From assembly GCA_033763315.1 (NCBI GenBank), contig JANRKS010000016.1, forward strand, positions 223,408 to 287,407: a DNA stretch of 64,000 bases. The letters are read 5' to 3'. The translations under genes were made by a program, and so were the position numbers. This DNA is from Deltaproteobacteria bacterium. Lineage in GTDB: Bacteria > Myxococcota_A > Polyangia > Fen-1088. This document shows, one piece after another, positions 1 through 51,712 of the stretch. A model generated the notes under the pieces. The model had not been told where the DNA came from and did not search any database. It was given only the letters and a program-made list of their open reading frames with translations. How positions within the stretch are numbered: position 1 is the first letter of the stretch; the number at the start of each line of letters is the position of its first letter.

Positions 1-259
1 GGATGTACTGGGTTTGCGGGTGTTGCTGCAAAAGCGCGCGCCAGCCTTCGTTGCGCGCGCGCGCCGCCGTGAACGGCCGGCTCAAATCTAAGTTCACCAC
101 CCGTGCGCCTTGCGCTTGCGCAAACGCAACGCTGTTGTCGCGCGAGCCAGAATCCACATACACAACCGCATCACAATCACGCGCCAACGATCGCAAGCAG
201 CGCTCAAGTCGTTCGCCTTCATTGCGTCCGATGGCCACGCAACCTGTTGCCGCTATCAT
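1..259 (-). CDS. Family 2 glycosyltransferase, N-terminal part (runs off the window edge)
   Basis: Not in the ORF track. Manual translation from ATG 259 gives MIAATGCVAIGRNEGERLERCLRSL...VVYVDSGSRDNSV...FTAARARNEG, a typical GT-A/GT2 N-terminus. ATGA overlap with the upstream gene's stop (256-259). Confidence 0.85.
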   Translation of the reverse strand, partial: MIAATGCVAIGRNEGERLERCLRSLARDCDAVVYVDSGSRDNSVAFAQAQGARVVNLDLSRPFTAARARNEGWRALLQQHPQTQYI

Positions 260-1053
260 GAAGAGACCGCTCCGCGACGGCGTCGCGTGCGCAACGCATG
301 CACAAACAACGATCCCACAAACGGCAAGTCATCGATCAGATATCGTTTGGCCAACCGCCCCGGCTCCTGCGCCATGCGATGCATCCATTCAAGCCCCAGC
401 TTTTGCATCCATGCAGGTGCCCGCTGCAACTCGCCGGCGATGAAACTGAAGGACACGCCAACGCCGATCATGAATGTGCTTGGAAAGTGCGCGCGCAAAC
501 GTTCGATCAGGTGTTCTTGTTTGGGCGAGCCCAGCCCCACCATAAGGATGCGTGGCTGCAGCGGTTGCAACGTGGCCACAAGCGCGTTGATCTCATCGTC
601 CGTGGGCGGGCTGTGCACCATGGGGCTGGACGTGCCGGCTACGATCAAGCCGGGATAACGGCTTTGCAACACCAGGGCGGCACGAGCGGCGGATTCGCCT
701 TGCCCGCCCAGCAAATAGATCGAATGACCCGTGGAGGCAGCGCGTTCCGCCAATAGCAACGCCAACGAGGATCCGGCCACGCGCTCAGGCACATCATCGC
801 CTTGCAACCGCGCCGCCCACACCAGTGGCATGCCATCAGCGACTCGCAGATCCGCCGCAGAATAAAGCGCGCGCATTTCGGGCTCTTTGGCCCACCGGCG
901 CAGAAAATCCAGGTTCGCCGTGATCAACCAACCGCCAGCGCCTGCGCGAAGGCGCGCGAAAATGGCGTCGACGAGACGAGCGGAGGTGACGCTGGCAACC
1001 TCCAACCCCATCAACTCACACCGCGGTATCCCCTGCCCCAACGACTCCGTCAT
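256..1053 (-). CDS. WecB/TagA/CpsF family glycosyltransferase (GT26)
   Basis: Motifs TANLD, ADGMPLVW, ERVAGS, VGLGSPKQE, GVGVSF, RAPAWMQKLGLEW.HR...EP.RL..RY. Confidence 0.92.
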   Translation of the reverse strand: MTESLGQGIPRCELMGLEVASVTSARLVDAIFARLRAGAGGWLITANLDFLRRWAKEPEMRALYSAADLRVADGMPLVWAARLQGDDVPERVAGSSLALLLAERAASTGHSIYLLGGQGESAARAALVLQSRYPGLIVAGTSSPMVHSPPTDDEINALVATLQPLQPRILMVGLGSPKQEHLIERLRAHFPSTFMIGVGVSFSFIAGELQRAPAWMQKLGLEWMHRMAQEPGRLAKRYLIDDLPFVGSLFVHALRTRRRRGAVSS

Positions 1054-2336
1054 GGTTTGCTCATAGCAGACGTAACATGCGCTTGGAAAATCTGTGCCAC
1101 CTGCGCAGGCGTGGCATTGGCCGCATTAAACAGCGCCGCCAACAAACGCGCTGATGTTTGAATGTTGTGCCTTTGCAACACGCGTGCGCGCCCTTCGGTT
1201 CCCATTTTCAACAAAGTCTGAGATTCGGTCTGCAAGGCGGCCTTCATCGCGGCAGCCAAGGCACCGGTGTCGCTGGCAGCCACGAGCCAACCGTTCTTGC
1301 CATGCTCCACAAGTTCAGGAATGCCTGCAACATAAGTGGTGATCACGGGCCGCCCCATGGCCAGCGCTTCCATGATCACCACCGGTAAACCCTCGGCAAA
1401 GCTGGGCAACACCAGCGCGCGCGCACCTTGTAAGGCCGCCTTTACGCCTGCTGTGTCTTTCCACCCGGCCAATGTGACTTGGCCTTGCAGGTTGTGTTCA
1501 GCGATCGTGGCTTCCACCAACCCACGCAGTTCACCGTCGCCGATAAACGTAACCGACAGGGGCGTGCCTTCGTTCGCCAAGGCGGCGATGCTTTTGCACA
1601 GGCTCACGTGCCCTTTTTGTTCAGATAGCCGCCCCACACACACGAGGCCGCCTTGAGGCGGAACAGGAACGGGTGATTCGTCGAGGAAACTCGCGTCCAG
1701 GCCGCAAGGCACAATCACCACCTTGTCCCAGTCTTCGCTGCGGCACAGGCGATAAAGTTGGCTGCGCCCAAAGTGGCTGATGACGGCCACAAACCGCGCC
1801 CGCGCCACTTTTTCGGCGAGCGACAGCAATGGGGCCTTATCAAACTCTTCGGGACCGTGGATCGTAAAGCTATACGTCACGCCGCCCAGCGCCGCGGCCA
1901 GCATGGCCACGGTGGCAGAGTTGGTCCCGAAATGGGCATGCACATGACCAACCCCGCCCCGCCGAAGCCAGCGCCGCAGCAAACACGCTTCGGCCAGATA
2001 AACCAGGTGATACAAACGACCTTTTTCGGATCGGCGCCCCACCCGTATGGCCAGCGCCACGGCTTTGCAAAACAGCAGAGGCACCGCAAGGGCCGTGAGC
2101 AAGACCCCCATGAGCAGGGCCCCCGCACCGGCTTCAAGGATGACCCGGGTTTGGGCCGCTTCCTCCGCGTCCGCCGCATCAGTCATCGGCTCGCCGCTGC
2201 GTCGCACGCTCACCCGGGTGACCCTGAAACCCAGCGCTTCTAGGGCGCGAATCTCGCGACGCACAAAGGTGTGGCTGCCTTTCGGGTATTGATTTACAAG
2301 GTAACCCACCAATTGGGAGCGCGAGGGGTATGTCAT
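1050..2336 (-). CDS. GT4 glycosyltransferase (WcaL-like)
   Basis: YP..SHTFVRREI, HVHAHFGTN, FTIHGPEEF, VGRLSEQKG, PSFAEGLPVVIMEALA. Start placed at ATG 2336; the ORF track extends to 2396. Confidence 0.9.
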   Translation of the reverse strand: MTYPSRSQLVGYLVNQYPKGSHTFVRREIRALEALGFRVTRVSVRRSGEPMTDAADAEEAAQTRVILEAGAGALLMGVLLTALAVPLLFCKAVALAIRVGRRSEKGRLYHLVYLAEACLLRRWLRRGGVGHVHAHFGTNSATVAMLAAALGGVTYSFTIHGPEEFDKAPLLSLAEKVARARFVAVISHFGRSQLYRLCRSEDWDKVVIVPCGLDASFLDESPVPVPPQGGLVCVGRLSEQKGHVSLCKSIAALANEGTPLSVTFIGDGELRGLVEATIAEHNLQGQVTLAGWKDTAGVKAALQGARALVLPSFAEGLPVVIMEALAMGRPVITTYVAGIPELVEHGKNGWLVAASDTGALAAAMKAALQTESQTLLKMGTEGRARVLQRHNIQTSARLLAALFNAANATPAQVAQIFQAHVTSAMSKP

Positions 2337-2488
2337 TTGCACAGTCCTTAACGGGTGGGAATACGAACGTACTTGCACGTCCCTTCTTTCACCCACACCT
2401 TACTTCCGCGGGGGGACGTGCGCATATCAGGGTAGGTTAGCGGCCCCTAGGCGGTGTGGACATACATCTTCCTTGTTTTTAGGGGCAA

Positions 2489-2542: not shown

Positions 2543-2548
2543 CATCAC

Positions 2549-3961
2549 ATGAAGGGCGTTAGGGGCGGGGTTCTGAGGGGGCATGAGGACGCGGTGGGCG
2601 CGTTTCAGCGTGTGACCGACAGCGTCATCATCATTGCGACGCACTGGGCCGCATGCAAACTTTACGGCGAACTGTGGCGCCCGGCGATGACCAGCGCCAC
2701 GGCCATCGCTTTGGTGTTGTTCTTCTTCATCTCTGAGTTTCGCGGCCTTTACAAGCCATGGCGTGCAGAACGGTTGGGCAAAGAGGTGCAGGCGGCCACC
2801 GTGGCGTGGATCCTGGTTGTGCCATTGCTGGTGTTCGCCGCGTTCGCCACGAAGACCTCCACTCACTTTTCACGTGTCATCTCGGTGAGCTGGTTCTTAT
2901 CCACCGTGGTTGGCTTGGCCTTGGTGCGCGGGATCATTCGCTTGGTGCTGCGCGAGCTGCGGCGCATGGGCCACAACACCCGCACTTACGCGGTGCTGGG
3001 CGCCACCGAATGCGGCGAGCGCATCATCGAGGCATTTAACGACCGGCCCTGGATGGGATACCGCTTGGTCGGCACCTATGACGACCGTTCGCTTGATCGT
3101 CATCATCAGTTCACAAAAGTGGACGCAAAGCCCGGTGGGGGTGTGAACGAGCTGCTCAAGGCCGCCCATGACGGCAAGGTCGATGCCATCTACATCGCGC
3201 TGCCTTTGCGCGCCGAGGCGCGGGTGGGGGAGATCCTACGTGCGTTGGCTGACACCACGGTGACGGTTCACTTGATCGCCGACTTCTTCACCTTCGACTT
3301 GCTTCACGGACGTTGGGGCCAGGTCGGTTCGTTGCCGGTGGTCAGCATTTATGATTCGCCGTTTAGCGGCAACAACGGCTGGGTCAAACGCCTTGAAGAC
3401 ATCGTGTTGGGGTCCATCATCCTGGCCATCATCGCGGTGCCCATGCTGCTCGTGGCCATCGCCATCAAGCTTGAATCAAAGGGCCCGGTGTTCTTCCGCC
3501 AGCGGCGCTACGGGCTTAACGGCAAGAGCATCCGCGTGTTGAAGTTTCGCAGCATGACGGTTTGCGAAGACGGCCCGAACGTTGTGCAAGCCAAAGCCAA
3601 TGACGCGCGCGTCACAACCGTGGGGCGATTCATCCGCCGCACGTCGATCGATGAGCTTCCGCAATTCATCCAGGTGCTCACAGGCGAGATGTCAATCGTG
3701 GGTCCGCGCCCGCACGCCGTGGCTCACAACGAACAATACCGATCCTTGATCCATGGCTACATGCTGCGCCACAAGGTGAAGCCAGGCATCACGGGTTGGG
3801 CCCAGGTCAATGGCTTCCGCGGCGAAACCGATAAGATCGAAAAGATGGAAAACCGGGTGCGTCACGACCTGGATTACATCCATAACTGGGACCTGCTTTT
3901 GGACCTTAAGATCATTTTTCTCACAATCTTTGGGTCCAAAACGCGCAGCAACGCGCACTAG
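2549..3961 (+). CDS. wcaJ: Undecaprenyl-phosphate glucose phosphotransferase (priming glycosyltransferase)
   Basis: Four N-terminal TM helices and a CoA-binding-like middle domain. C-terminal Bac_transf motifs KRLEDI, GPVFFRQRRYG, KFRSM, RTSIDELPQF, MSIVGPRPHA, KPGITGWAQVNG.RGET, DLDYI.NW. Confidence 0.93.
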   Translation: MKGVRGGVLRGHEDAVGAFQRVTDSVIIIATHWAACKLYGELWRPAMTSATAIALVLFFFISEFRGLYKPWRAERLGKEVQAATVAWILVVPLLVFAAFATKTSTHFSRVISVSWFLSTVVGLALVRGIIRLVLRELRRMGHNTRTYAVLGATECGERIIEAFNDRPWMGYRLVGTYDDRSLDRHHQFTKVDAKPGGGVNELLKAAHDGKVDAIYIALPLRAEARVGEILRALADTTVTVHLIADFFTFDLLHGRWGQVGSLPVVSIYDSPFSGNNGWVKRLEDIVLGSIILAIIAVPMLLVAIAIKLESKGPVFFRQRRYGLNGKSIRVLKFRSMTVCEDGPNVVQAKANDARVTTVGRFIRRTSIDELPQFIQVLTGEMSIVGPRPHAVAHNEQYRSLIHGYMLRHKVKPGITGWAQVNGFRGETDKIEKMENRVRHDLDYIHNWDLLLDLKIIFLTIFGSKTRSNAH

Positions 3962-4002: not shown

Positions 4003-5886
4003 ATGTCCAAGAAAGCTTCACCATCTGGAAGTCACGCGCTCACCACAGTGCGCGCGGGCGCGTTGGACGCTCAGCTGGACCGTGCCGTTCCTTCTGAATC
4101 GCCCACGGCCTTCTTGATGGCCACCAAAGGCGAGATGGTGGGGCGGGTGTTCCCGCTTAAGCACAACACCATCGTGGTGGGCCGCGGGGCCGAGTGCGAC
4201 ATTCAGCTTACAGACGCGTCCGTGTCCACACGTCACACCCGCTTGCTCAGCCGCCCGCACGGCTTCGACGTTGAAGATCTAGGCTCCACCAATGGCACCT
4301 TCGTGGACGATCATGCCGTCACTCGCGGCACGCTCACCTCAGGGCAACGGCTGCGCCTGGGTGCCGTTGAGTTCAAGCTGCTGTTGGATCAGCGATCGCA
4401 GCCCACGATGTTGCTTGTGCCAACGCTCGTGCAGCCAACCACGACATCGGGTGGCGCTGTGCCGCCGCGGCGCCGCTTGGAGCAAGACGTCGAGGCCGAT
4501 GAAGGCGTGTCGCTGCAGGAGATGCTGGGCAAAGGCATCCGCATTTACCGCGTGGTCCGCAAACACTTCATGGCAGCCGGGATCATCTTGGGCCTCAGCT
4601 TGCTGGCAGCGGCCATCAGTGTGATTTGGCTTCCCCCAGGCTCCAGCGCCATGTGCGAAGTGAAGCTGCACCCTGAGGAGCGCACGAACCCGGTGGATCC
4701 CACCACGTCAACAGCGCCCAAAAACAAGTCTTTGTTCGAGTCGCCTGAGCGGGCATTCATCAACCCCACATTGATCGAAACGACGCTTAAAACGTTAGGC
4801 AAGCCCGCGTACGTGGAAGAAGTTAACGCTGTGCAAGCGCGGCTCAAGCTTGAGCCTGTAAGCGAAAACGGCTACATCGCCTCCTTCAGTGAAGGGATGT
4901 TGACGCGCGGCCGGTATGATCTGGTGGCCCTGTTGACCACGCACGTGAAGACGTATGTGCAGAACGAAACGGACAAGGCCTTGAGCGTGTCGGTGGCGGA
5001 GACGGAGTTCTTGCGCGCGCAAACGGCACAAGCCGAGAAGGAACTGTCGAAGATCGATGCTGAATTGCGCACCTTCAAAGAAGAAAACCTCAGCTCGTTG
5101 CCCGAATCGGCCACACTGGCCTTGGGCTCGCGGGCGCAGATGGAAGCGCGCAAGCCAGAGCTGGTGGCGCAGCTAACGAGGCTTAAGGGCGAAATCGCCA
5201 GCGTGAAAAGCCAAATCGCCAGCGAGGGCCCCCTTTCCCAAGGCCGCACGCAATCGTCCACCGCCCACCGCACCCGGCTGGCCGCCATTAACGAAAAGCT
5301 GGCCGAATTGCGCGCCCGAAGTCTGACCGATGAACATCCCGAAGTTCGCGCGCTCGTGGAAGAGAAGAAGTTAACCGAAGGTTTGATCAACCAAGAGCTG
5401 AGCGCGGGCCAAAACGACCTTGAACGCAAGACGAGCCCGGAACTTCACGCCTTGGAAGTGAGGCTACAGAGCTTGGAGAGCCAAGAAGCAGCCTCGCGAA
5501 CCGAATTGTCTGAACTTTCGGATCGCATCCATGTGGCAAAGAAGCTGCTCACCGAGATGCCGAGGGTCGACGCTCGTCTGCAAGAACTTCTTCTCAAACA
5601 AGAAGATCAGCGCAAGCTGTATTCGCAGATGTTCGAGCAACTCAAGCGCGCCGAGGTGCGGCTGCAGCTTGAACGCGTATCGGTTTCCTCGCGTCATGAA
5701 ATCACCAGTCCGCCACGACTGTGGAAGGCACGCAAAAGCAAAGTGGCTTTGCAGCGTTTCGGATTGGCCGCCGGTTTGGCTTTCGTTGTCATTGGAATAA
5801 TGATTTTGGCTAAAGAGCTGCGTCCGATGGTGCAAGCGGCCTGGAACGCCGCCGAGGCCAACGAGCGCGGCGCCACGAGGAGTTGA
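4003..5886 (+). CDS. Polysaccharide co-polymerase (Wzc/GumC-like chain-length protein) with N-terminal FHA domain and no BY-kinase domain
   Basis: FHA motifs VVGRG..CDI.L.D.SVSTRH and DLGSTNGTFV. Then TM1, a long coiled-coil periplasmic region with LTDEHPEV, TM2, and a short cytoplasmic tail without Walker A. Confidence 0.8.
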   Translation: MSKKASPSGSHALTTVRAGALDAQLDRAVPSESPTAFLMATKGEMVGRVFPLKHNTIVVGRGAECDIQLTDASVSTRHTRLLSRPHGFDVEDLGSTNGTFVDDHAVTRGTLTSGQRLRLGAVEFKLLLDQRSQPTMLLVPTLVQPTTTSGGAVPPRRRLEQDVEADEGVSLQEMLGKGIRIYRVVRKHFMAAGIILGLSLLAAAISVIWLPPGSSAMCEVKLHPEERTNPVDPTTSTAPKNKSLFESPERAFINPTLIETTLKTLGKPAYVEEVNAVQARLKLEPVSENGYIASFSEGMLTRGRYDLVALLTTHVKTYVQNETDKALSVSVAETEFLRAQTAQAEKELSKIDAELRTFKEENLSSLPESATLALGSRAQMEARKPELVAQLTRLKGEIASVKSQIASEGPLSQGRTQSSTAHRTRLAAINEKLAELRARSLTDEHPEVRALVEEKKLTEGLINQELSAGQNDLERKTSPELHALEVRLQSLESQEAASRTELSELSDRIHVAKKLLTEMPRVDARLQELLLKQEDQRKLYSQMFEQLKRAEVRLQLERVSVSSRHEITSPPRLWKARKSKVALQRFGLAAGLAFVVIGIMILAKELRPMVQAAWNAAEANERGATRS

Positions 5887-6491
5887 ACTTGTTCGCAAAG
5901 CTTAGGTTCGCGGTGGTGGCGGTGGGGTCCGTGGTGGTGGGGTTGTGTTCTAGCTGTGCCGGATCGGGGCCGTACACGTGGGTAAGCGACGTGCGGCCCG
6001 AGGCGCCGGCGACGACACAAACGATTCAACCCCGCGATGTGTTGGCCATCAGTGTTGTGGGGCAGCCAACGCTCAGTGGTGAGTTCGCCGTGCGAGACGA
6101 TGGCGCTTTGACGGCGCCGCTCGTGGGCAGCGTGCCAGTGGCGAACTTGACGCCCACGTTGGCTGCCAACGCGCTGGCGCAAGCGTGGAAAAAGATGGTG
6201 GTGGATCCATCGGTTACCGTCACCGTGGCCAAAGCCGCCAACCCGCGCGTGAATGTGGTGGGTGAAGTGAAAACACCGGGCGTGTTCGAGCTTGTGCGCG
6301 ATCACACGGTGCTAGGTGCGTTGGCGGCCGCGGGCTGGGTCACCGATTTTGCCAGCAAAGATGGCATCTACGTGGTTCGCCGCGATCGACGCACGCCCAG
6401 GGTGCGGTTCCGCATCAGCGATCTCACCACCGCCGAGCCTCGCTCTGCCGCTTTCCTGCTGGCCGACGGCGACACCGTGGTTGTTGAATAG
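5883..6491 (+). CDS. Short OPX/Wza-family polysaccharide export lipoprotein (Poly_export + SLBB)
   Basis: Lipobox-like LCSSC; IQPRDVL.ISV, VRDDG.LT.PLVG.V, VNVVGEVKTPG; ends LADGDTVVVE with no C-terminal membrane helix. TTG start overlaps the co-polymerase stop. Confidence 0.88.
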   Translation: MNLFAKLRFAVVAVGSVVVGLCSSCAGSGPYTWVSDVRPEAPATTQTIQPRDVLAISVVGQPTLSGEFAVRDDGALTAPLVGSVPVANLTPTLAANALAQAWKKMVVDPSVTVTVAKAANPRVNVVGEVKTPGVFELVRDHTVLGALAAAGWVTDFASKDGIYVVRRDRRTPRVRFRISDLTTAEPRSAAFLLADGDTVVVE

Positions 6492-10579: not shown

Positions 10580-10711
10580 TGCGACACTGCGAGGGCCGGC
10601 GTCAAAATACCACGGCCTGAGGCACGTGGAATTATGTCGACTGACGCGCCGGGGCGCCGAAAGGGCCACCCACTATACAACACGTGAACCACGCGCGACC
10701 CGACCCGCAGG

Positions 10712-13291: not shown

Positions 13292-13452
13292 GTTCAAGCT
13301 CCCGTGGGCTTCTTAGCGCGCCGCCGGTTTGGCGGCAGCCTGGCTGCTATGATAAAGACCGTGCGCCGCGTACGCCGGCACCAGGACATGAACGTGGCAA
13401 CGAACAACAACAGGGGCAGTGGGGGGCAGGGGATGGCACAAAGGGCGTTGCG

Positions 13453-32746: not shown

Positions 32747-34014
32747 GTCAGCAACGGCAACAGCCAACGCAAGGGCCGCTTGCGGCTGTGGTAACGAGCC
32801 CACACGGACTCGAAATAATCCCAGGTCAGCGAGGCCACGCGTGCCGGCCCTAAACGCACAGCCATATCGTTCGCCGCGGCCTCACCGAAGGCAGCCGCGC
32901 GTGCAGGATCGTTGTAAAGCGCAACCACGGCCGCCGCCAAGGCCGCAGGATCTTCGGGCGTGAACAGCAGGCCTGTGTTTTGATCCAGCAGGATCTCCGG
33001 GTTGCCACCCGTGCGTGAGGCCACCGTCGGGCACCCAAACGACAACGCCTCCACCAACGCTAAACCGAAGTTCTCGTAGCGCGAAGCCACCACGGTCACG
33101 CAGGCCGATCGGCGCAAGGGCTCGATCGCATCGCCTGCCAGCGGCCCCCGCACATCCACGCGCGCTTGCACCGCAGGCGGCAACTTTGTGCGCACATACG
33201 TGGGCAGATCGAACTGCGTGCCAGAATCGTCTCGCAACCCACGATCGGGCCCCACAAACACCAACCGCGCTTGCGGACAAGCCGCAGCGATGTGCACAAA
33301 GGCATCCAGCATGATGTCGCCGCCCTTGTGGCGGTCGAAACGGCCCACGAACAAGATGGTTTGTTTGTCGCTCGTGGCGGGCGTCCAACGCCGCGCGGGT
33401 TCAATCGTGGGTCCGGGATTCGGAATCACGGCCGCGTTTGGCAAGGCAAGTCCATGCTTGCGTCTCACGGCCTCGAGCACATCACGCGATGGCGCCGTCA
33501 AACCATCGGCGTCCCGCATGCAGCGCCGCTCGGTGGCGTCACGTAACGCAAACGCCGCGTCCTGCTCAAGGCCCAACGCGTTGCCGTTCAAGAACCACGG
33601 GCCATGCAACCGCACCACCAGCGGCAGATCGATCATCTGCTGCAAATACCAAGCGGCCCCAAATGATTCTTCCACTTCCAACAAGCCGGGTTGCAGCCCT
33701 TTTGCTTGCAGGCCGCGCAAGCCGCTGGCGAGCTGTAACGCCAGCGCTGCGCCCGTTGGTTCCACGAACGGCACCTTGCCAAGCGCCCGCAGCAGCAAAC
33801 GAATCCGCTTACGGTTCGGCAGAGCCGCCATGTCGAACGTGGGTGCATTGTCCGCTGCGTCGGCCACGCTGGCCGACATCACGTGAACCTGTTTGCCTTG
33901 CGCCACAAGCGCGTCTTTGAGGGCGCCCACATAGGTGACGATGCCATTCGCCACACGCCCTGGCGGCCATCCCGGGCTGAAGAACGTCGCTGAGTTGTTA
34001 CTAGTGTCGGACAT
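32743..34014 (-). CDS. GT4 glycosyltransferase
   Basis: NGIVTY, VVRLHGP, VIPNP, LFVGRFDRHKG, SRYENFGLALVEA...G.P.V. Start at ATG 34014, overlapping the wzx end. Confidence 0.9.
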   Translation of the reverse strand: MSDTSNNSATFFSPGWPPGRVANGIVTYVGALKDALVAQGKQVHVMSASVADAADNAPTFDMAALPNRKRIRLLLRALGKVPFVEPTGAALALQLASGLRGLQAKGLQPGLLEVEESFGAAWYLQQMIDLPLVVRLHGPWFLNGNALGLEQDAAFALRDATERRCMRDADGLTAPSRDVLEAVRRKHGLALPNAAVIPNPGPTIEPARRWTPATSDKQTILFVGRFDRHKGGDIMLDAFVHIAAACPQARLVFVGPDRGLRDDSGTQFDLPTYVRTKLPPAVQARVDVRGPLAGDAIEPLRRSACVTVVASRYENFGLALVEALSFGCPTVASRTGGNPEILLDQNTGLLFTPEDPAALAAAVVALYNDPARAAAFGEAAANDMAVRLGPARVASLTWDYFESVWARYHSRKRPLRWLLPLLT

Positions 34015-43952: not shown

Positions 43953-43955
43953 CCC

Positions 43956-46900
43956 ATGGATCCCACCAACACCACCATATCTGCCTCGGACGATGACGGC
44001 GCCATCGCCATCATAGGTATGGCCTGTCGTTTTCCCGGCGCCCGCAACCTTGACGAATACTGGGCCAACCTTGTGGCCGGCAAAGAATCCATTCGTACGC
44101 TCAGCGGCGATGAGCTGATCAAAGCAGGCGTTCCGCGCCGCTTCTTAGACGATCCCACATACGTCAAAGCCTGCCCCGTGTTGGACGACATCGATAAGTT
44201 CGACGCCGCGTTTTTCGGCATCAGCCCCCGCGATGCCGCCGTGATGGATCCCGCGCACCGCTTCTTTTTGGAAGTGGCATGGCAAGCGTTGGAAAACGCC
44301 GGCAACACAGGGCTTGCCGATGAATCAACCGTGGGCGTGTTCGCATCCTCAGGCGCTCCGCTTTATTGGATGAACAACGTGCGCAGCCACCATCAATTGG
44401 TGGAAGCGATGGGCGAGTTCTTGGTGCGCCACACCGGCAACGACATGAACTTTCTGGCCACGCGCGCCTCATATGATTTGGATTTGCGCGGCCCCAGCCT
44501 GAACGTGCAAACCGCCTGTTCCTCCGCGCTGGCGGCGGCACACCTGGCGCGCCAAAGCCTGCTCGCACGCGAATGCGATATGGCCTTGATTGGCGGATCC
44601 ACAATCTTGGTGCCCATGGCACACGGCTATCATTGGAAAGAAGGCGAAATCCTTTCCCCCGATGGCCACTGCCGCCCCTTCGATCATCGCAGCGCCGGCA
44701 CAGTATTTGGAAGCGGCACGGGCTGCTTGGTGTTAAAGCGCCTCACCGACGCCTTGGACAATGGCGACACGATCTATGCCGTCATCAAAGGATCCGCGAT
44801 CAACAACGACGGCTCCGTGAAAGTGGGCTTCTTGGCCCCCGGGGTGGAAGGCCAAGCCGACGTGATCAAAAAAGCATTGGCGTCGGCCAACGTCAGTGCA
44901 CGCAGCATAAGTTACGTGGAAGCTCACGGCACGGGCACCAGCGTGGGTGATCCGATCGAACTTACGGCCCTTGAACAAGCCTTTGCCGAGCAAACCACTG
45001 ACAAGCAGTTCTGTGGCATCGGATCGGTGAAATCCAACATCGGCCACCTGGGTGAAGCGGCCGCCGCCGCCGCTCTGATCAAGCTTGCCTTGTCATTGAA
45101 GCACCGCACATTGCCCCCTTCGCTTGGTTTCGAGGCACCGAACCCGCGCTTCGATATGGCGAATAGCCCCTTCTATGTGAACGCATCGTGCCGGCCTTGG
45201 CAAAGCAGCGAGCCGTTGCGCGCAGGCATCACGGCCTTGGGCGCGGGTGGCACCAACGTGCACTTGGTGCTTGAAGAGCCACCTGCATTTTTGGAAGGCG
45301 AAGGCGGCCGCACGCGCAATTTGCTGGTTTTGTCGGCGAAATCGAAGCCCGCGCTTGAGCGCATGAGCGCGAACCTGGCCGCGCACATCGAGAGCCACGC
45401 CTCAGACCATCTCGCTGACGTGGCCTTTACGTTGGCCATGGGACGCCGATCGCTTTGCTACCGCCGCGTGTTGGTGGCGCGAGATCGGGCCGATGCCGTT
45501 GCCCTTCTCAAAGGCCTTCACCCCACGCGCCTCGCCACGCTCGCGGCTGATCAAAGTGATCCAAGTGTGGTCTATACGTTCCCAGGCGGCGGCGCACAGT
45601 ACGCGCGCATGTGCTTGGATCTGTACGAGGCCGAGCCGGCGTTCAGATCCGCTCTCGACGATTGTTTTGCCATCATCGATGCCGAGATCGATCCCAACAT
45701 ACGCTCGCTGCTTTTTGCGCCCGCGGCGCAAGTCGACGTGGCAACCAAAGCATTGCAGCGCCCCGCGGCCTCGTTGCCCACGCTGTTCTCGGTGGAGTAC
45801 GCGTTGGCGCGTTTGTTTGATGCCTTCGGCCTGCGCCCCGCCGCCTACGTGGGCCACAGCATGGGCGAGTATGTGGCCGCGTGTTTGGCGGGCGTGTTCT
45901 CGCTGCGCGATGGCTTGCGGCTTGTGGCGCTGCGTGGCCGCCTGTTTGAAACCACGCAAAAAGGTAAAATGGTGGGCGTGTCGCTGTCGGAAGCGCAAAC
46001 GCGGGCGATCATGCCCGCGGGGCTCAGCATCGCCGCCGTCAACGCCCCCACCTTATGCGTGGCCTCTGGGCCCAGCGAGCTCATCGACGAACTTACGCGC
46101 ACGCTCACAGCGCAACAGGTGGATTGGACGCCGATCCACATCGACGTCGCCGCGCATTCGTCGCTGCTTGAGCCCATCCTTGATGAGTTCAGGCGCTTTT
46201 GCCGCACGATCAGCTTTCGTGCGCCACAAAAGCCCGTGGCATCGAATCTCACAGGCCGTTGGCTCACGCCCGCCGAAGCCACGGATCCCGAATATTGGGT
46301 CCGCCATCTGCGCGGCACGGTACGCTTTTCAGATTGTGTGGAAACCGTTTTGGCCGATGGCAACCGTGTTTTCCTTGAAATTGGTCCAGGCCGCACACTC
46401 ACCACGCTGGTGGCCGCACAAGCCACCTCCGTGCGCCATGCGTTCAATTCCGTTCGTCATCCCAAGGAGGAGGCGAACGACGTTGACTATGCGCTGCAAA
46501 CGTTAGGAAAAGTGTGGGCCGCTGGCGCGAAAGTGGACTGGACGGCGCTTTACGATGGCCAGCTTCGCAACCGCATCCCCCTGCCCGTTTATCCCTTTGA
46601 AGGTCAATCTTATTGGGTGGACGGCCAAGCGGTGCACACCACATCAAGCACCGAACTTGTAAAGCGCGAGAACATCGACGAATGGTTCTATGCAGCGACA
46701 TGGCAGCCTGCGCCGATCTTGCATGCGCACCCCACACAAGCCGCGCACTGGTTGATCTTTGCCAACGACGCGGTGGCCTCGCAACTTCTTGCGGAACAGC
46801 TGCAACAGCATGGCGCCAGTGACGTGGTGATCGTTTCGCCGGGCGCAGCATTCAATCAAAGAGATCTCGCCCGCTTTGAGCTTGTCGAAGGCAACACAGA

Positions 46901-49900
46901 GCACTACCGCCAACTTCTGGAACAACTTAAGTCTGAAGGCCGTGCGCCACAACACATCGTGATGCTGCTCGACGGCCATAACGCTGCCGCGCTTGTTCCG
47001 GTGCCCCGCACGGTGCGGGATCGCCTGTTTCCCAAACGCCTGCAGGCCAACGCCGCCCCCAGCGTTGAGCAACAGTTAACACGTCAATTCTTCGCGCCCG
47101 TGCATTTGGCGCAAGCCATCGCCGGAACGCTTGAGGCCTGTGCGTTGACGCTGGTGACCCACAGCGCATTCGCCTTGCCTGGCACAGCCCCCAACCCGTG
47201 GGCGCGCTTGACCGCCGGCCCCGCCCAAGTGATCCCGCGCGAGTTGCCCGAGCTGGCCACACGCTTGATCGATCTGGATGCCGCATTCTCAGCCACAACG
47301 GCCGCCGAACGCCTCGCGCATGAACTGCTCAATGGTGATGCCACGTCGCCGCTGCTCTTGCGTGGCAACACGCGGCTTACCCAACAGCTGTGTGCCACGC
47401 GCCTGCCGCCGCCAAATTTATCGTGGCTGTCCGACGGCGACTTGGTGCTGATCACCGGTGGCCTCGGTGGCTTGGGTTTGGCCATCGCGCAACACCTTGT
47501 GGGCCTTCGCAAAGGCCTCAAGCTTGTGTTGCTATCCCGTGAAGGGTTACCGCCATCATCGCGGTGGCAAGCGCAGCTCGCATCTGCGCACACCTCGGCG
47601 CAAACCAAGCGCCGCTTGGCCGCTGTGTCAGCGTTGCAAGCGCACGGCGCGCAGGTGATGGCCGTGGCCGCCGACGTCACCGACGCGGCCAGCCTTCGCA
47701 TTGCGCTTGCACAGGTGCGCGCGCAGCTTGGCCCCTTGCACGTGGTGATTCACGCCGCCGGCATCATGGATGATGAGCCGCTGCAAACCAAACCAGACGA
47801 AAAAATGCGGCGCGTGTTGGATGCCAAGGTCAAGGGCACCGTCAACTTGGATGACCTCATTCACGAGCCGCTCAAAGCGTTCGTCTTAATGTCCTCGGTG
47901 GCATCGTTTTTGGGCCTACCAGGCCAAGTGGATTACACCGCGGCCAACGCCTTTCAAGACGCGTTCGCAGCCCAACGCCAAGCCCACAAGCCGGGACGAT
48001 CGCTCTCCATCAACTGGAACGCGTGGCGCGAGGTGGGCATGGTGGTCAACGTCGAGCAACACACGCCCTTATCCGCCCTGCCCACAGGCACCACAAACCA
48101 TCCCTGGTTGCAAGCCAGCGAGGAGACGCCGCAAGGTCGCCGCTATTTCACTGATTTTTCCACGCACACCCACTGGCTGCTGCGCGAACATCACATCAAG
48201 GGCGCGCAGTCGCTCATACCGGGCACAGGGTTTATCGAGCTGGCGCGTGCCGCGTTCACAGATGCAGCTTCTCATCACATGCCAGCGGCCCCAGCCAACG
48301 CCGCCATCGAGTTTCGTCAAGTAACGTTCTTGCACCCGTTTCAGGTCGCGGGCGATCAGACGCGGAGGCTGCAGATCGACGTGCAGTGGGAGAACGATGT
48401 GGCCTCGGTTGAACTGCGCACCACAGGCACCAACGAGACGCACATGACCGCTGAAATACGGCTTGTGTCTGCCAAACCACAAACACACGACCTTGCAAAG
48501 ATCCGCGCGGCGTGCGTTCACGCCGGCCCCACGCGCGATGGCTTTTTGGATCAAGACTTCGTGCAGTTTGGGCCGCGCTGGCAAAACATCGCGGAGCTGC
48601 ACTTTGGGACAACTGACGCGCTCATTAACCTGCAGTTGCCCCAGCCATTTTCTTCCGACCTGCCCACGTTTGCCTTTCACCCCGCGCTGGCCGATATGGC
48701 CACCGGTGCCGCGCAAAAGCTGATCCCAGGCTTCCGCCCCCACGAAGACTTCTATGTGCCGTTCGGCTACGATCGGATCACCTTGTTGGCACCGCTTGAG
48801 CCACAAATGATCAGCCACGTCACCTTGCGCCCTGAAACCACGGGCGACGTCGCCGCGTTCGACGTGCACATTTGCACCCCGGCAGGCACGCCATTGGTGA
48901 CGATCCAAGGCTTCACCATGAAGCGCGTCCACGCCCAGGCCACCATCACACAAAGCGCCCCCACCAGCGAGGCAGCCAAGCCCACGGCAGCCATGGCCGC
49001 CATTTTGCGCGAAGCGATCACTCCCGCCGAAGGCGTCGTGGCCTTCGAGCGGGCGCTTTCCCAGTCGGCGTTGGCCAACGTTGTGATCTCATCTGTCGAC
49101 GTGAACCTGTGGCTGCGCAAACTTGCCGCCGATTCGCAACGCCTCAAGGGTGATGACGCGGCCGATGCCACGCCCAGTTTTTCACGCCCCGATCTTAACA
49201 GCGAATATGTGGCCCCCGCGGGCGCGCTGCAAACAAGTTTGGCGGCGATTTGGTCCCGCCTTTTGGGCGTGGGTAACGTGGGCGCCATGGACGATTTTTT
49301 CGAACTCGGCGGCAATTCACTCACAGCCGTACGTTTGTTTGCCCGCATCAAGAAAGACTTCGGCATTTCACTACCGCTTTCCACACTGTTTGCTGCACCC
49401 AGCATAACCCTGTTGGCTGAAGTCTTGCGCAGCCACGGCTTTGTGGCCGAGGCTGAATCCCAGGGCGCAACGCCTCCCGCGCCAACCATCGAAGTGCAAA
49501 CCATGCCCGCCCCGCCGCACATCGCGCCGCCGCTGTTGATCCGGCCGGGCAAAACTCCGTTGTTCTTCGTGCACGACGGCCTGGGCGAAGTGTTGCTTTA
49601 CCGAAACCTGGCCATGCTCATCTCACCAGAGTACGCGGTCTATGGCTTGGCACCCGAGACCGCTGGCGGCCAATTTATACACACGCGCATCACGGATATG
49701 GCGGCCGCCAAGGTGCAACGCGTCCGCAGCGTGCAACCACACGGCCCGTATCTTTTGGCAGGTCTGTGCGCCGGCGGCATCATTGCCTTCGAGATGGCGC
49801 GCCAACTAGAAGACGCAGGCGAAGAGACGCACTTCGTGGGCATCATCGACGCAGCCGACGTGCACGCGGAAGAGCGCAAGCTGCGCAGCACCCGCGCCCG

Positions 49901-50444
49901 CCTGAACCGCGCACTGCACACGCTTCGCCGCCCCACAGATCAAACGTTGCTCACACACGTCAGTGGCACCACAACCACCATGCTGCGCAAAACGCTCAAC
50001 GTGATGAACTATGAGGTATCCAAGCGTTTGGAACGCATCGCCAACCAAAAGCGCGTTGACCAATTGCAAACGCACGCGGCGCAGGGCGTGGCCGAGCCCG
50101 TCATCGAGTTTTTGAAACTATATGAACTCGCACACAAACAGCACACACCACAGGGCGTTTTTCGCAGTGGAAATGTGGTGCTGTTCCGCGCCACCCAAGG
50201 CACGGGTGATGTGGCCGACGTCCCTTTTCGAGAAGTCTATAGCGATCCATTGCTGGGCTGGTCGCCTCGCGTGCAGGGGCCAGTGACCGTCGTGGATATC
50301 CCTGGCGGCCATTCAAGCGCGCTACAAATGCCACACGTTGAGCAACTCGCCAAAGTGTTTCAAGATCAACTCGACCGCGCCGTTTTGCAGCACATGACGT
50401 TGGCCCCATTTACGCCCACCACATCCCTAGGGTTTCTGCAATGA
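43956..50444 (+). CDS. Type I PKS module: KS-AT-KR-DH-ACP-TE
   Basis: KS QTACSS/EAHGTGT/NIGHL; AT GHSMGE and VAAHS; KR ITGGLGGLG, HAAGIMDD, YTAAN; DH HHIKGAQSLIPG and HPALAD, located after the KR; ACP FFELGGNSL; TE GLCAGG and PGGH. Confidence 0.94.
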   Translation: MDPTNTTISASDDDGAIAIIGMACRFPGARNLDEYWANLVAGKESIRTLSGDELIKAGVPRRFLDDPTYVKACPVLDDIDKFDAAFFGISPRDAAVMDPAHRFFLEVAWQALENAGNTGLADESTVGVFASSGAPLYWMNNVRSHHQLVEAMGEFLVRHTGNDMNFLATRASYDLDLRGPSLNVQTACSSALAAAHLARQSLLARECDMALIGGSTILVPMAHGYHWKEGEILSPDGHCRPFDHRSAGTVFGSGTGCLVLKRLTDALDNGDTIYAVIKGSAINNDGSVKVGFLAPGVEGQADVIKKALASANVSARSISYVEAHGTGTSVGDPIELTALEQAFAEQTTDKQFCGIGSVKSNIGHLGEAAAAAALIKLALSLKHRTLPPSLGFEAPNPRFDMANSPFYVNASCRPWQSSEPLRAGITALGAGGTNVHLVLEEPPAFLEGEGGRTRNLLVLSAKSKPALERMSANLAAHIESHASDHLADVAFTLAMGRRSLCYRRVLVARDRADAVALLKGLHPTRLATLAADQSDPSVVYTFPGGGAQYARMCLDLYEAEPAFRSALDDCFAIIDAEIDPNIRSLLFAPAAQVDVATKALQRPAASLPTLFSVEYALARLFDAFGLRPAAYVGHSMGEYVAACLAGVFSLRDGLRLVALRGRLFETTQKGKMVGVSLSEAQTRAIMPAGLSIAAVNAPTLCVASGPSELIDELTRTLTAQQVDWTPIHIDVAAHSSLLEPILDEFRRFCRTISFRAPQKPVASNLTGRWLTPAEATDPEYWVRHLRGTVRFSDCVETVLADGNRVFLEIGPGRTLTTLVAAQATSVRHAFNSVRHPKEEANDVDYALQTLGKVWAAGAKVDWTALYDGQLRNRIPLPVYPFEGQSYWVDGQAVHTTSSTELVKRENIDEWFYAATWQPAPILHAHPTQAAHWLIFANDAVASQLLAEQLQQHGASDVVIVSPGAAFNQRDLARFELVEGNTEHYRQLLEQLKSEGRAPQHIVMLLDGHNAAALVPVPRTVRDRLFPKRLQANAAPSVEQQLTRQFFAPVHLAQAIAGTLEACALTLVTHSAFALPGTAPNPWARLTAGPAQVIPRELPELATRLIDLDAAFSATTAAERLAHELLNGDATSPLLLRGNTRLTQQLCATRLPPPNLSWLSDGDLVLITGGLGGLGLAIAQHLVGLRKGLKLVLLSREGLPPSSRWQAQLASAHTSAQTKRRLAAVSALQAHGAQVMAVAADVTDAASLRIALAQVRAQLGPLHVVIHAAGIMDDEPLQTKPDEKMRRVLDAKVKGTVNLDDLIHEPLKAFVLMSSVASFLGLPGQVDYTAANAFQDAFAAQRQAHKPGRSLSINWNAWREVGMVVNVEQHTPLSALPTGTTNHPWLQASEETPQGRRYFTDFSTHTHWLLREHHIKGAQSLIPGTGFIELARAAFTDAASHHMPAAPANAAIEFRQVTFLHPFQVAGDQTRRLQIDVQWENDVASVELRTTGTNETHMTAEIRLVSAKPQTHDLAKIRAACVHAGPTRDGFLDQDFVQFGPRWQNIAELHFGTTDALINLQLPQPFSSDLPTFAFHPALADMATGAAQKLIPGFRPHEDFYVPFGYDRITLLAPLEPQMISHVTLRPETTGDVAAFDVHICTPAGTPLVTIQGFTMKRVHAQATITQSAPTSEAAKPTAAMAAILREAITPAEGVVAFERALSQSALANVVISSVDVNLWLRKLAADSQRLKGDDAADATPSFSRPDLNSEYVAPAGALQTSLAAIWSRLLGVGNVGAMDDFFELGGNSLTAVRLFARIKKDFGISLPLSTLFAAPSITLLAEVLRSHGFVAEAESQGATPPAPTIEVQTMPAPPHIAPPLLIRPGKTPLFFVHDGLGEVLLYRNLAMLISPEYAVYGLAPETAGGQFIHTRITDMAAAKVQRVRSVQPHGPYLLAGLCAGGIIAFEMARQLEDAGEETHFVGIIDAADVHAEERKLRSTRARLNRALHTLRRPTDQTLLTHVSGTTTTMLRKTLNVMNYEVSKRLERIANQKRVDQLQTHAAQGVAEPVIEFLKLYELAHKQHTPQGVFRSGNVVLFRATQGTGDVADVPFREVYSDPLLGWSPRVQGPVTVVDIPGGHSSALQMPHVEQLAKVFQDQLDRAVLQHMTLAPFTPTTSLGFLQ

Positions 50445-51712
50445 CTAAGAACGATGGATCGAAACAAACCTATCTGATGGTGTTGCCTGTGCCCGCGCGC
50501 CGGCTCAACGATCACCAGTTCGCGATCGAAAGCGCCTTTGCCGACCACCTGCGTTTGCTGCGGCGCAAACTGGGCGATTTGGCCTCAACGCTCGTGGTGG
50601 CGCTTCCTCAAATGAGCGACGCCAGGTATCAGGCGTTAAAAGCGAGCCTGGCCACCGTCGATGAGACCACCGACAACATCCACTTCGCGGCGATGTACTC
50701 TGAAGACCTGGGCCGGCTCGGTTATTTCAAAGCCTTTCCCGGCATCATGCGGGCCCTGTACAAAGAGGTGCGCCAAGCCTCGGTTGTCCACGCGGGCTGT
50801 TCAGAGCTGTTCCGCCCCTATGAATTTGCGTCGTTGTTGATGGGTCGAGCGCTTGGACGCAAGACCATCAGCGTGACCGACATCGACAACCGCAAAAGCC
50901 CTGAAATGAACCTGAAATCGGGGCGTTGGTCGAAACGCGAATACCTCAGCACCATCTTGCTTCACCGCCCCACCAAGCGTTTGCAGCAGACCGTGGCCGC
51001 GCGTACGTGTTCACTCGTTCTGCTCAAAGGCGCAAAGATGGCCCATGACTACGGCAAAGGTCGCCCCAACGTCAAAAACTTCCTCGACTCAGCTTTCTCG
51101 GCTGAGCACATCATCCCTTTCGCCCAGCTTGAACAAAAGTGCGCCGCTCTTTCCGATCCCGCAACGCCCCTTGATCTCACCTACTTCGGCCGCTTGGTTG
51201 GCTACAAAGGCGTCGACCACATGCTGCGCGCCCTCGCACACGCAAAAACACTGGGCCTGCAAAACTTCCGCTTTCACATCATCGGCGGCGGCGAAGAAGA
51301 GTCCGCGCTAAAGGCGCTGACGGACACATTGGGGCTGCAACACGAAGTCATCTTTCACGGGTCTGTCCCCTTCGGCAAGACGCTGTTCGAGCGCCTGCAC
51401 AATTGCCACGTGCTCCTCGCTGCACCGCTGAGCGAAGACACCCCTCGCAGCGCGCTGGACGCCCTAGCCAGTGGCCAAGCGATCGTTGCCTACAACACGT
51501 ACTACTACGAAGAGCTCAAGTCCGCCGGCGCGCCCGTCACCACCGTTGCGTGGCCAGACGAAAAGGCACTTGGACAAGCCATCGCAAAACTCGCCCGCGA
51601 TCGTAACCAGCTGGCGATGCGATTGCGCGACGCCGTGACCTTCGCGCAAGAGAACACCCAGGAGATCTGGCTTGACCGGCGCGTCGAGTGGACACGCGCG
51701 TTGTTTGGCTAA
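50441..51712 (+). CDS. GT4-like glycosyltransferase
   Basis: YFGRLVGYKGVD, FHIIGGGEE, VIFHG.V, SEDTPRS.LDA.ASG. ATGA-coupled to the PKS stop. Confidence 0.82.
   Translation: MTKNDGSKQTYLMVLPVPARRLNDHQFAIESAFADHLRLLRRKLGDLASTLVVALPQMSDARYQALKASLATVDETTDNIHFAAMYSEDLGRLGYFKAFPGIMRALYKEVRQASVVHAGCSELFRPYEFASLLMGRALGRKTISVTDIDNRKSPEMNLKSGRWSKREYLSTILLHRPTKRLQQTVAARTCSLVLLKGAKMAHDYGKGRPNVKNFLDSAFSAEHIIPFAQLEQKCAALSDPATPLDLTYFGRLVGYKGVDHMLRALAHAKTLGLQNFRFHIIGGGEEESALKALTDTLGLQHEVIFHGSVPFGKTLFERLHNCHVLLAAPLSEDTPRSALDALASGQAIVAYNTYYYEELKSAGAPVTTVAWPDEKALGQAIAKLARDRNQLAMRLRDAVTFAQENTQEIWLDRRVEWTRALFG

Follow-up and report, generated by a model that had tools for sequence, protein, structure and literature searches.

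The window analysed here is a stretch of 64,000 nucleotides from a contig (C16, positions 223408-287407) of a Deltaproteobacteria bacterium (genome G000 in the following). Between positions 256 and 51712 it contains a Wzx/Wzy polysaccharide pathway, four megasynthases and one Sfp-type phosphopantetheinyl transferase (PPTase). The megasynthases belong to two assembly lines built of nonribosomal peptide synthetase (NRPS) and polyketide synthase (PKS) modules, line 1 (g14 and g15) and line 2 (g21 and g22), and the relation of these lines to the exopolysaccharide (EPS) genes around them is the subject of this article. The gene map was based on the listing of open reading frames (ORFs), on Pfam and NCBIfam scans of the ORFs of at least 150 aa, and on a look-up in the ESM Atlas. 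The glycan genes, the PPTase and line 2 are arranged as follows.

256-1053, minus strand: g01, glycosyltransferase of the WecG/TagA/CpsF family (Pfam PF03808, E 7.9e-57)
1050-2396, minus strand: g02, glycosyltransferase GT4a (Pfam Glyco_trans_1_4 and Glycos_transf_1)
2549-3961, plus strand: g03, initiating polyprenyl-phosphate hexose-1-phosphate transferase (PHPT), WbaP/WcaJ-like (Pfam Bac_transf and CoA_binding_3)
4003-5886, plus strand: g04, FHA-domain protein (Pfam FHA) with a C-terminal part resembling a polysaccharide co-polymerase (PCP)
5883-6491, plus strand: g05, short OPX export protein, EpsY-like (Pfam Poly_export and SLBB, above cut-off)
6506-7822, plus strand: g06, candidate EpsX-like outer-membrane beta-barrel of 438 aa (ESM Atlas)
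8405-10669, minus strand: g08, Ser/Thr protein kinase (Pfam Pkinase)
10712-13297, minus strand: g09, GH5-like protein of 861 aa (Pfam Cellulase, E 8.1e-6)
32030-32803, minus strand: g16, Sfp-type PPTase (Pfam ACPS and AASDHPPT_N; likely start GTG at 32746)
32743-34092, minus strand: g17, glycosyltransferase GT4b (Pfam; likely start ATG at 34014)
34001-35593, minus strand: g18, Wzx flippase (Pfam Polysacc_synt_3, above cut-off)
36498-37940, minus strand: g20, polymerase (or ligase) of the Wzy_C family (Pfam Wzy_C, 35.2 bits, above cut-off)
38103-43952, plus strand: g21, initiating NRPS of line 2, F-A(LLM monooxygenase insert, MT insert)-T (Pfam; likely start ATG at 38121)
43956-50444, plus strand: g22, PKS of line 2, KS-AT-KR-DH-T-TE (Pfam)
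50441-51712, plus strand: g23, glycosyltransferase GT4c (Pfam)

An earlier note on this DNA had described the Wzx/Wzy genes as interleaved with the four megasynthases and the PPTase, and both the ORFs and the family matches agree with this. The junctions it quoted are likewise all present in the sequence. The PPTase is the last gene of a wzx-GT4b-PPTase unit, in which the wzx stop and the ATG of GT4b overlap by 14 nt (34014..34001), and GT4b and the PPTase have GTGA at 32746-32743 in common. The PKS and GT4c share ATGA at 50441, and wzy is divergent from the formylating NRPS (F-NRPS) g21, with about 160-180 nt between them. By these overlaps the PPTase is translationally coupled to glycan genes and GT4c to the PKS. 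Additionally, g14 and g15 share ATGA at 20991, and g15 and the PPTase are convergent with a 4-nt overlap. The note had counted five glycosyltransferases; four were found (the WecG-family enzyme, GT4a, GT4b and GT4c) plus the PHPT, with no fifth among the ORFs of at least 150 aa. Its statement that a dedicated small-molecule exporter is missing stands, as no ABC, MFS or RND family was matched in the window's ORFs of that size. In 31500-38500, predicted promoters and terminators were no more numerous than in shuffled sequences.

The export genes were assigned at different levels. Residues 313-612 of g04 resemble the XrtA chain-length determinant TIGR03007 (E 1.7e-22; 79 bits against a cut-off of 279), and g05 matches the NCBIfam EpsY model with 143 bits (E 8.7e-42), under the equivalog cut-off. 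The protein g06 has no Pfam or NCBIfam match, and falls in the ESM Atlas into an EpsX cluster (feature score 0.97, TM 0.78) and also into beta-barrel porin clusters; its identification as an EpsX-like barrel, which draws on Atlas features and a predicted structure, should be taken as a lead rather than as an alignment. In the case of g20, the Pfam Wzy_C model cannot separate polymerase from ligase.

Line 2 is composed of the F-NRPS and a single PKS module. In g21 the luciferase-like monooxygenase (LLM) occupies residues 789-1114 between the two AMP-binding halves of the A domain, an arrangement denoted A(MOx) below, and a methyltransferase is found at about residues 1430-1565. The formyltransferase contains the N-x-H, SLLP and D motifs, and the T domain LGASSL. 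Among solved structures, the F domain (38121-39000) matches sugar N-formyltransferases best (GDP-perosamine formyltransferase and ArnA) and Fmt next, and LgrA was not matched in this search at E 1e-5. The PKS g22 has an unusual domain order with the KR ahead of the DH. Its motifs are TACSS, HGTGT and NIGH in the KS, GHSMG in the AT, GGLGGLG (Rossmann) in the KR, which looks B-type, LGGNSL in the T domain and GLCAG in the TE. In this TE (49536-50441) the nucleophile motif, at residue 1938 of the protein, is thus one with cysteine; serine is found instead in 44 of 46 aligned PKS TE domains, and cysteine was seen only in loci L046 (GLCAG, the TE being 46% identical) and L070 (GYCFG). With motif definitions that we take to be the accepted ones, catalytic and attachment motifs are recognisable throughout both assembly lines, the serine motifs of the T domains being LGGHSL, LGFDSL, LGASSL and LGGNSL. 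The specificity signature of g21 is DILQLGMVW; all A-domain codes were taken from motif anchors, not from an alignment to 1AMU or from a specificity predictor. With the position mapping and the codes that we assume here, g21 and g14 are read as Gly-like, the first A domain of g15 as Val-like and the second as Thr-like.

The link between line 2 and the glycan genes was examined across phyla. A scan at one genome per species gave 80 loci with A(MOx) homologues, many of them from the Roseobacter group, and these were compared with the window proteins by tblastn, a glycan homologue being a match of at least 80 bits within 10 kb and a full-flank locus one with at least 8 kb on both sides. Full-length (F-type) homologues of g21 occur in 52 of the 80 loci. 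The NRPSs of Leisingera and other Rhodobacterales align to residues 9-1389 and 1726-1904 of g21, and against the Roseobacter cluster line 2 has full-length identities of 40-48% (NRPS) and 36-40% (PKS), the Rhodobacterales PKSs covering about residues 9-2150 of the 2162 in g22. A PKS adjoins the F-NRPS in 39 of the 42 full-flank F-type loci, collinear with g22 and 36-53% identical to it. At least one homologue of WecG, GT4a, PHPT, wzx or wzy is present in 34 of these 42 loci and at least two in 26, as against 0 of 10 full-flank controls of the non-F type (C-A(MOx)... modules; 1 of 28 overall). By record title, glycan homologues accompany the F-type loci of Rhodobacterales (24/25), Hyphomicrobiales (3/3), Burkholderiales (2/3), unclassified Pseudomonadota (2/2), Myxococcota (2/3) and Cyanobacteria (1/1, PHPT only). 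WecG homologues of g01 adjoin F-NRPS/PKS pairs with 34-38% identity in Rhodobacterales and 54% in Myxococcota, and wzx homologues (33-40%) lie in Rhodobacterales F-NRPS loci.

The gene order in Leisingera is GT2, an unknown gene and WecG (minus strand), then wzy-PKS-GT2-F-NRPS-PPTase-314 aa-834 aa-GT2, then GT4a (minus strand) and wzx; in Rhodobacterales the Wzy_C gene stands directly 5' of the PKS in one co-directional unit. The Leisingera WecG, wzy, GT4a and wzx match exactly g01, g20, g02 and g18 of the window in the reciprocal search. The 314-aa and 834-aa proteins that follow the PPTase in Leisingera (L039:17446-20891) have no family in Pfam at E up to 0.5. They are found again in 10 and 18 of the 80 loci, respectively, and may supply the missing transfer or export functions. 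Furthermore, locus L038, from a metagenome-assembled genome (MAG) labelled Hydrogenophaga, may reflect gene transfer or a binning error, since its NRPS is nested in the Rhodobacterales clade and its locus has the Rhodobacterales gene order.

The specificity of GT4a and wzy was followed in five genomes (Leisingera, Paracoccus, Agrobacterium, the Hydrogenophaga-labelled MAG and Aureimonas). In each of them the copy in the F-NRPS locus is the strongest match of GT4a in the whole genome, with 238-372 bits against at most 132 for the next match, and wzy is matched in two of them (Leisingera and Paracoccus), where the only match in the genome lies inside the NRPS/PKS locus. In the 121 genomes of the Leisingera family the NRPS was found in 37, a GT4a orthologue in 37 and a wzy orthologue in 39; GT4a and wzy are each present in 35 of the 37 NRPS-positive genomes and, respectively, in 2 and 4 of the 84 NRPS-negative ones, counts that come from related genomes and hence are not independent observations. 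Since the cluster is present in less than one third of the family and is closely matched by two glycan genes, it is best read as one inherited unit. Cross-phylum synteny, best-hit orthology and a near-perfect phyletic co-occurrence thus support a link of line 2 to Wzx/Wzy glycan genes at the level of protein families, and GT4a, as judged from its matches, can serve to mark the NRPS-linked glycan cassette.

In the window's own family an orthologous EPS locus recurs in G002, G003, G007, G008, G010, G014, G015, G016, G019, G022 and G034, with a conserved set of PHPT, FHA-PCP, OPX, barrel, Ser/Thr kinase, GH5, WecG, GT4a, wzx, GT4b and wzy. The GT4a orthologues in these loci are 51-54% and the wzy orthologues 36-52% identical to those of the window. 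PHPT orthologues (55-62%) head an FHA-OPX-barrel operon, and the adjacency of the FHA gene to the OPX gene is kept in G014, G015, G016 and G010. Homologues of the kinase (45-51%) sit between the PHPT and the FHA gene in G015 and G016, homologues of the GH5-like protein (44%) adjoin wzx/wzy/WecG in G010 and G003, and homologues of GT4b (39-52%) adjoin wzx and GT4a in G022 and G007. By this conservation of sequence and position, the kinase and the GH5-like protein are members of the family EPS locus. GT4c has a 49% homologue in the EPS locus of G014, at 2.3 kb from wzy. The adjacency of GH5 to wzx/wzy in G010 and the proximity of GT4c to wzy in G014 place both lines of the window inside the EPS locus and not beside it.

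NRPS-type genes are found inside the EPS locus on four of the five long contigs besides the window (G014, G015, G008 and G010), and none on the fifth, the long contig of G016. In G014 the genes run in one direction as PHPT-X-A(MOx)-T-PPTase-FHA-OPX-barrel, and the N-terminal 258 aa of the NRPS gave nothing usable in Pfam at E up to 0.5. The PPTase of this operon (contig C304, L022:16719-17435), which has the A(MOx)-T NRPS on one side and the FHA-PCP gene on the other, is of the 4PPT_N type. In G015 an A-T-TE protein is encoded between WecG and GT4a, and its 57%-identical orthologue in G008 adjoins wzx and wzy; in both, the A signature is Gly-like and the TE motif, GLCFG, is of the Cys type. 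The EPS locus of G010 has a free A domain together with AsnB-like and MT genes. The signature DILQxG.[IV]W is common to g21 and all these EPS-linked A domains. A common origin of the g22 TE and the Cys-type TEs of G015 and G008 was considered and rejected, their similarity (29-42% identity, partial) being too weak.

Line 1 lies in a co-directional block between the GH5 gene and the PPTase.

13234-14130, plus strand: g10, hexapeptide-repeat acyltransferase opening the block (Pfam Hexapep)
13959-15110, plus strand: g11, PhyH-family Fe/2OG dioxygenase (Pfam PhyH, E 3.5e-8)
15107-15826, plus strand: g12, ORF of 239 aa with no family match
15880-16701, plus strand: g13, CPBP/CAAX-type membrane protease (Pfam Rce1-like; NCBIfam CPBP below cut-off)
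16810-20994, plus strand: g14, terminal NRPS, TubC_N dock-C-A-T-TE (Pfam)
20991-32033, plus strand: g15, hybrid of 3680 aa, A-T-KS-AT-T-aminotransferase-C-A(MT)-T (Pfam)

The NCBIfam matches of g10 are sugar and antibiotic O-acetyltransferases, all below cut-off. The condensation motif HHxxxDG is present in both megasynthases; g14 has in addition LGGHSL, the TE motif GISFG (Ser) and the signature DILQIGDVW, and the two A domains of g15 have the signatures DAL?LGGTF and DFWNIGMVH. Collinear homologues of g15 with 38-45% identity occur in 12 of the 150 other genomes of the class that were searched. In the five contexts of such homologues that were inspected (15-25 kb each) no homologue of a window polysaccharide gene was present, and for none of g10-g13 does a homologue exist in the relatives' EPS loci. 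Because the g15 homologues stand without EPS genes in all five loci, the 18.8-kb block g10-g15 is probably a lineage-specific insertion between GH5 and wzx, that is, a separate cluster. Its product would probably be a separate small peptide (Val-like, C2 with a beta-amine, MeThr-like and Gly-like units), only the PPTase being shared with line 2.

The coupling of the assembly lines to the glycan, as put forward in the earlier note, is supported for line 2 at the level of protein families, where synteny, orthology and co-occurrence agree, and probably does not extend to line 1. The note had also named the finding that would speak against it, namely that homologous megasynthases usually occur without polysaccharide genes. 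This is what was seen for line 1. Most full-flank F-type loci of line 2 contain glycan homologues; the synteny comparison is favourable for line 2 as a protein family and unfavourable for the clade in which the window's own NRPS stands, as described below.

From domain content, motifs, glycan-gene orthology, synteny and the co-inheritance of NRPS and PKS in other lineages, all of which are read from the sequences, we tentatively propose, giving it somewhat less than an even chance, that the window holds an EpsX/EpsY-type Wzx/Wzy EPS locus of a Myxococcota-like genome with carrier-protein chemistry built in, in which line 2 delivers a short formylglycine-derived enoyl unit to the repeat unit and its TE serves as the transferase. 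The substrate and the product of line 2 and their attachment to a sugar, which the earlier note had suggested for both lines, are what we infer by analogy. The A domain of g21 would load glycine on its own T domain, the amine would be N-formylated by the F domain, and the inserted LLM monooxygenase and methyltransferase would oxygenate and methylate the glycine-derived unit. The single PKS module of g22 would then add one malonate, which would be reduced and dehydrated to an enoyl thioester, and the Cys-type TE would pass the resulting short acyl group on to one of the sugars in the undecaprenyl-linked repeat unit, which PHPT, WecG, GT4a, GT4b and GT4c would build. Once Wzx had flipped the decorated unit, Wzy and the FHA-PCP protein would carry out the polymerisation, and the polymer would leave via OPX and the EpsX-like barrel.

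Several observations weigh against this proposal. In a FastTree phylogeny of 85 A(MOx) cores, with local supports only, g21 belongs to an 8-row MT-bearing clade (support 99), which is the sister of a 57-row clade (support 100) holding all the glycan-linked loci, and none of the three other F-type members of the MT clade examined (G019, G016 and L049) has adjacent glycan genes. In G019 the neighbours of the pair are TruB, PNPase and ASD at one end and an SDR and an SNF2 helicase at the other, and in G016 the pair is on contig C36 with the EPS locus on C83; both genomes carry the glycan cassette elsewhere. No glycan homologue accompanies 8 of the 42 full-flank F-type loci, among them all five of Chloroflexota, Rhodothermota, Gammaproteobacteria, Actinomycetota and Acidobacteriota. 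The Leisingera GT2s and 4PPT_N-type PPTase have no tblastn match in the window at E 1e-3, and the relatedness of the genomes behind the co-occurrence counts has already been mentioned. Nearer to the window, G002 of the same genus has homologues of GT4a, wzy and PHPT and no F-NRPS (G001, also of this genus, has neither glycan genes nor NRPS), and among 40 relatives GT4a or wzy orthologues occur in 4 of 7 genomes positive for the A(MOx)-NRPS and in 7 of 33 negative ones, a weak link. The EPS-linked A-T-TE protein has orthologues in three other families, and all three of these lie outside any such cassette, so the idea that Gly-type A-T-TE proteins always reside in EPS loci had to be rejected. 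Finally, no dedicated acyl-to-sugar transferase was found: in this respect the Pfam matches of the ORFs of at least 150 aa offer TE domains and a hexapeptide transferase only, with no enzyme like AlmG or the MBOATs.

Some of these points also speak for the explanation that the two systems are neighbours without chemical coupling, in which the TE domains of both lines release free metabolites (for line 2 an enoic acid derived from formylglycine, for line 1 a small peptide containing a beta-amino acid), only the PPTase is shared, and the EPS locus is a permissive insertion site or a co-regulated neighbourhood. Both lines indeed terminate in a TE domain, as lines for free metabolites do, the nearest F-type relatives examined carry the pair without glycan genes, the homologues of line 1 stand without EPS genes, and the A-T-TE orthologues of other families lie outside the cassette (3/3). 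F-A(Gly)-T starters are also used for the free metabolites conglobatin, oxazolomycin and rhizopodin (PMC4504003). What this explanation leaves aside is the phyletic co-occurrence of NRPS and GT4a (35/37 against 2/84), the specificity of the GT4a and wzy orthologues for the NRPS locus, the NRPS-type genes and a PPTase inside the EPS operons of G014, G015 and G008, the ATGA and GTGA coupling of PKS-GT4c and GT4b-PPTase, and the lack of any matched exporter family in the window; we regard it as possible, yet on the unlikely side. A glycan acceptor role of the NRPS/PKS product (or of a lipid, if the PKS is iterative) appears less likely again. The product would then be a glycolipid or a glycosylated small molecule, either with the oligosaccharide built on it by the glycosyltransferases, or with the Wzy_C protein acting as a WaaL/PglL-like ligase that moves the flipped Und-PP-glycan. 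The family to which g20 belongs does include ligases besides polymerases, the Wzy_C gene is directly 5' of the PKS and co-directional with it in Rhodobacterales, homologues of the window's PCP, OPX and barrel were detected in none of the 80 loci, and the KS-AT-KR-DH order leaves iterative use open. On the other side, the locus, both in the window and in its family, includes genes for a PCP-like protein, an OPX and a barrel, which a polymer pathway requires, the PKS is one module with a B-type-looking KR and a DH, and no lipid-handling gene was seen.

That both lines feed the polysaccharide, their units together decorating the repeat unit, is in our opinion very unlikely. Line 1 does lie between conserved EPS genes (GH5 on its left, PPTase-GT4b-wzx on its right), its block opens with a hexapeptide acyltransferase of the sugar O-acetyltransferase kind, the A signature of g14 is of the DILQ.G..VW type seen in the EPS-linked A-T-TE of G015 and G008, and g14 is the best match in G000 of these two proteins (36%, 354-381 bits). 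Such an identity is ordinary for NRPS modules, however, the g14 TE has Ser where G015 and G008 have Cys, and the isolated g15 homologues in five genomes, together with the absence of g10-g13 homologues from the relatives' EPS loci, argue for a separate cluster. Returning to the delivery of a line 2 unit to the polysaccharide, we consider a wider form of it possible but rather doubtful. In this form a mobile cassette of F-A(Gly,MOx)-T, KS-AT-KR-DH-T-TE, PPTase, WecG, GT4a, wzx and wzy, distributed in marine Roseobacters, Rhizobiales, some Burkholderiales and Myxococcota, would make an undescribed class of surface glycoconjugate with a short N-formylglycine-derived, oxygenated enoyl unit covalently attached to a Wzx/Wzy glycan, and the window would be a version elaborated with a methyltransferase, a Cys-type TE and a second line also ending on the polymer.

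The remaining parts of the window and of its genome can be described briefly. Two further ORFs lie among the EPS genes.

7832-8419, plus strand: g07, ORF of 195 aa with no family at E up to 0.001
35448-36545, plus strand: g19, ORF of 365 aa between wzx and wzy, overlapping both, of uncertain gene status (DUF6242 below cut-off)

The g19 ORF has a 36% paralogue on contig C24 of G000, and for g07, g12, g19 and the right-hand ORFs no usable match came up even when Pfam was searched at E up to 0.5. In 51854-56378, 3' of GT4c, there are genes for an AAA_14/DUF4143 ATPase, an RCC1-repeat protein and an Ig-like/LamG protein; since these have no homologue in the relatives' EPS loci, the EPS locus seems to end at 51712. 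A YhgA-like transposase gene (Transposase_31) at 63170-64000 is cut off at the right-hand margin of the window, where the contig stops as well. NRPS C domains, NRPS-type A domains and a Sfp-type PPTase occur in G000 in the window only. The same could not be upheld for PKS-like genes, as KS-AT-like genes with about 30% identity to the window PKS parts are located at C8:51219-58630 and C21:96453-99248; these may be PUFA-type or other type I synthases. A PHPT paralogue with 78% identity is encoded at C8:90690-92102, and about 2.4 kb from it an AMP-binding-like gene (C8:94480-96126) with 25% identity to NRPS A domains; the two may represent a second glycan locus with an adenylating enzyme.

The Roseobacter cluster, reported from about half of the sequenced Roseobacter genomes, has been without a known product since it was first noticed. 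If it forms one functional unit with the Wzx/Wzy cassette, the place to look for what it makes is the cell surface or the polysaccharides rather than an organic extract of the supernatant, and substituents made by NRPS and PKS would join the known decorations of polysaccharides. The Gly-type A-T(-TE) enzymes of myxobacterial EPS operons would then be a minimal form of the same idea, and there would be a rationale for finding the only NRPS C domains, A domains and Sfp-type PPTase of this genome in one EPS locus.

Line 1 resembles hybrids of the iturin/mycosubtilin type, which contain a KS-aminotransferase unit: the order A-T-KS-AT-T-AMT-C-A-T is shared, by which a beta-amino acyl unit would be passed to NRPS modules. 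It differs from them in its first A domain, which looks like an amino-acid domain (Val-like) and not like a fatty-acyl ligase, and in having two further modules only. PKSs of type I are known from surface-polysaccharide loci in WcbR of Burkholderia and RkpA of Sinorhizobium, and the likeness of the window to these, one of description and not of compared sequences, lies in the PKS within a polysaccharide locus; their capsule loci are of the ABC-transporter type and lack an NRPS partner. With the EPS pathway of Myxococcus xanthus the window has in common a short EpsY-like OPX, a separate EpsX-like barrel, PHPT, Wzx and Wzy; it is unlike that pathway in its scores below the equivalog cut-offs, in the FHA domain of its PCP-like protein and in that no BY-kinase was seen in the window. 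We know of no assembly line in the M. xanthus EPS loci. Glycine is said, in the title of a report, to be incorporated into the M. xanthus spore coat, a lead and not evidence.

Carrier-protein-dependent aminoacylation of a surface glycoconjugate is familiar from Dlt D-alanylation. By AlmEFG, carrier-bound glycine is added to the lipid A of Vibrio cholerae (PMC4278540). An adenylating enzyme and a phosphopantetheinyl carrier acting towards a surface glycoconjugate are the logic proposed here for the Gly-type A-T(-TE) proteins of EPS loci. Among the window ORFs scanned there is no transferase of the AlmG/DltB type, so that the TE would do the transfer, and formylation, oxygenation and PKS extension have no counterpart in these systems. 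In conglobatin, oxazolomycin and rhizopodin the F-A(Gly)-PCP starter (PCP being here the carrier) gives an N-formylglycyl thioester which a PKS extends with malonate (PMC4504003). The fusion of a formyltransferase to a glycine-type A-T module followed by a PKS module is common to these and to line 2. They differ in having many modules and the cyclodehydratase CongE/OzmP for the oxazole, for which no gene was matched in the window; the window line ends after one PKS module and contains MOx and MT inserts. The terminal modules MtaG and MelG of myxothiazol and melithiazol, C-A-MOX-A-T-TE, likewise have a monooxygenase-split A domain of the Gly type, and the MOX is proposed to hydroxylate the alpha-carbon of glycine (PMC11411415). 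This likeness is one of description, no MtaG sequence having been compared; the window module is different in that it starts the chain (F, no C), a PKS follows it, and the logic of a terminal amide is missing.

The closest known system is the Roseobacter-group cluster of NRPS, PKS, glycosyltransferase and PPTase. The earlier note had mentioned it; it is real, being described in PMC4337385 as present in 28 of 57 genomes with an uncharacterised product, and it is homologous to line 2. In a later paper it is still listed as an unknown NRPS-T1PKS hybrid (PMC10584327). In a search confined to the main texts of freely accessible papers, no characterised product of this cluster and no published tie to wzx/wzy was found. 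The cluster and line 2 are alike in the F-A(LLM monooxygenase)-T NRPS with a Gly-like A signature, in the adjacent, collinear KS-AT-KR-DH-T-TE PKS, and in the neighbouring orthologues of WecG, GT4a, wzx and wzy. In contrast to the four-gene core of the Roseobacters, the window has neither a GT2 between PKS and NRPS nor a 4PPT_N-type PPTase after the NRPS, and in it the PKS is followed by a GT4, while the PPTase, of the AASDHPPT_N type, is encoded at another place. Its NRPS stands in a sister clade, and the nucleophile of its TE is Cys where that of the Roseobacters is Ser. The Roseobacter-type cluster is thus known as an orphan, and the variant described here is new in its MT insert, its Cys-type TE, its PCP-like, OPX (EpsY-like) and EpsX-like export genes, its second assembly line, and an arrangement without the GT2 and the 4PPT_N-type PPTase.

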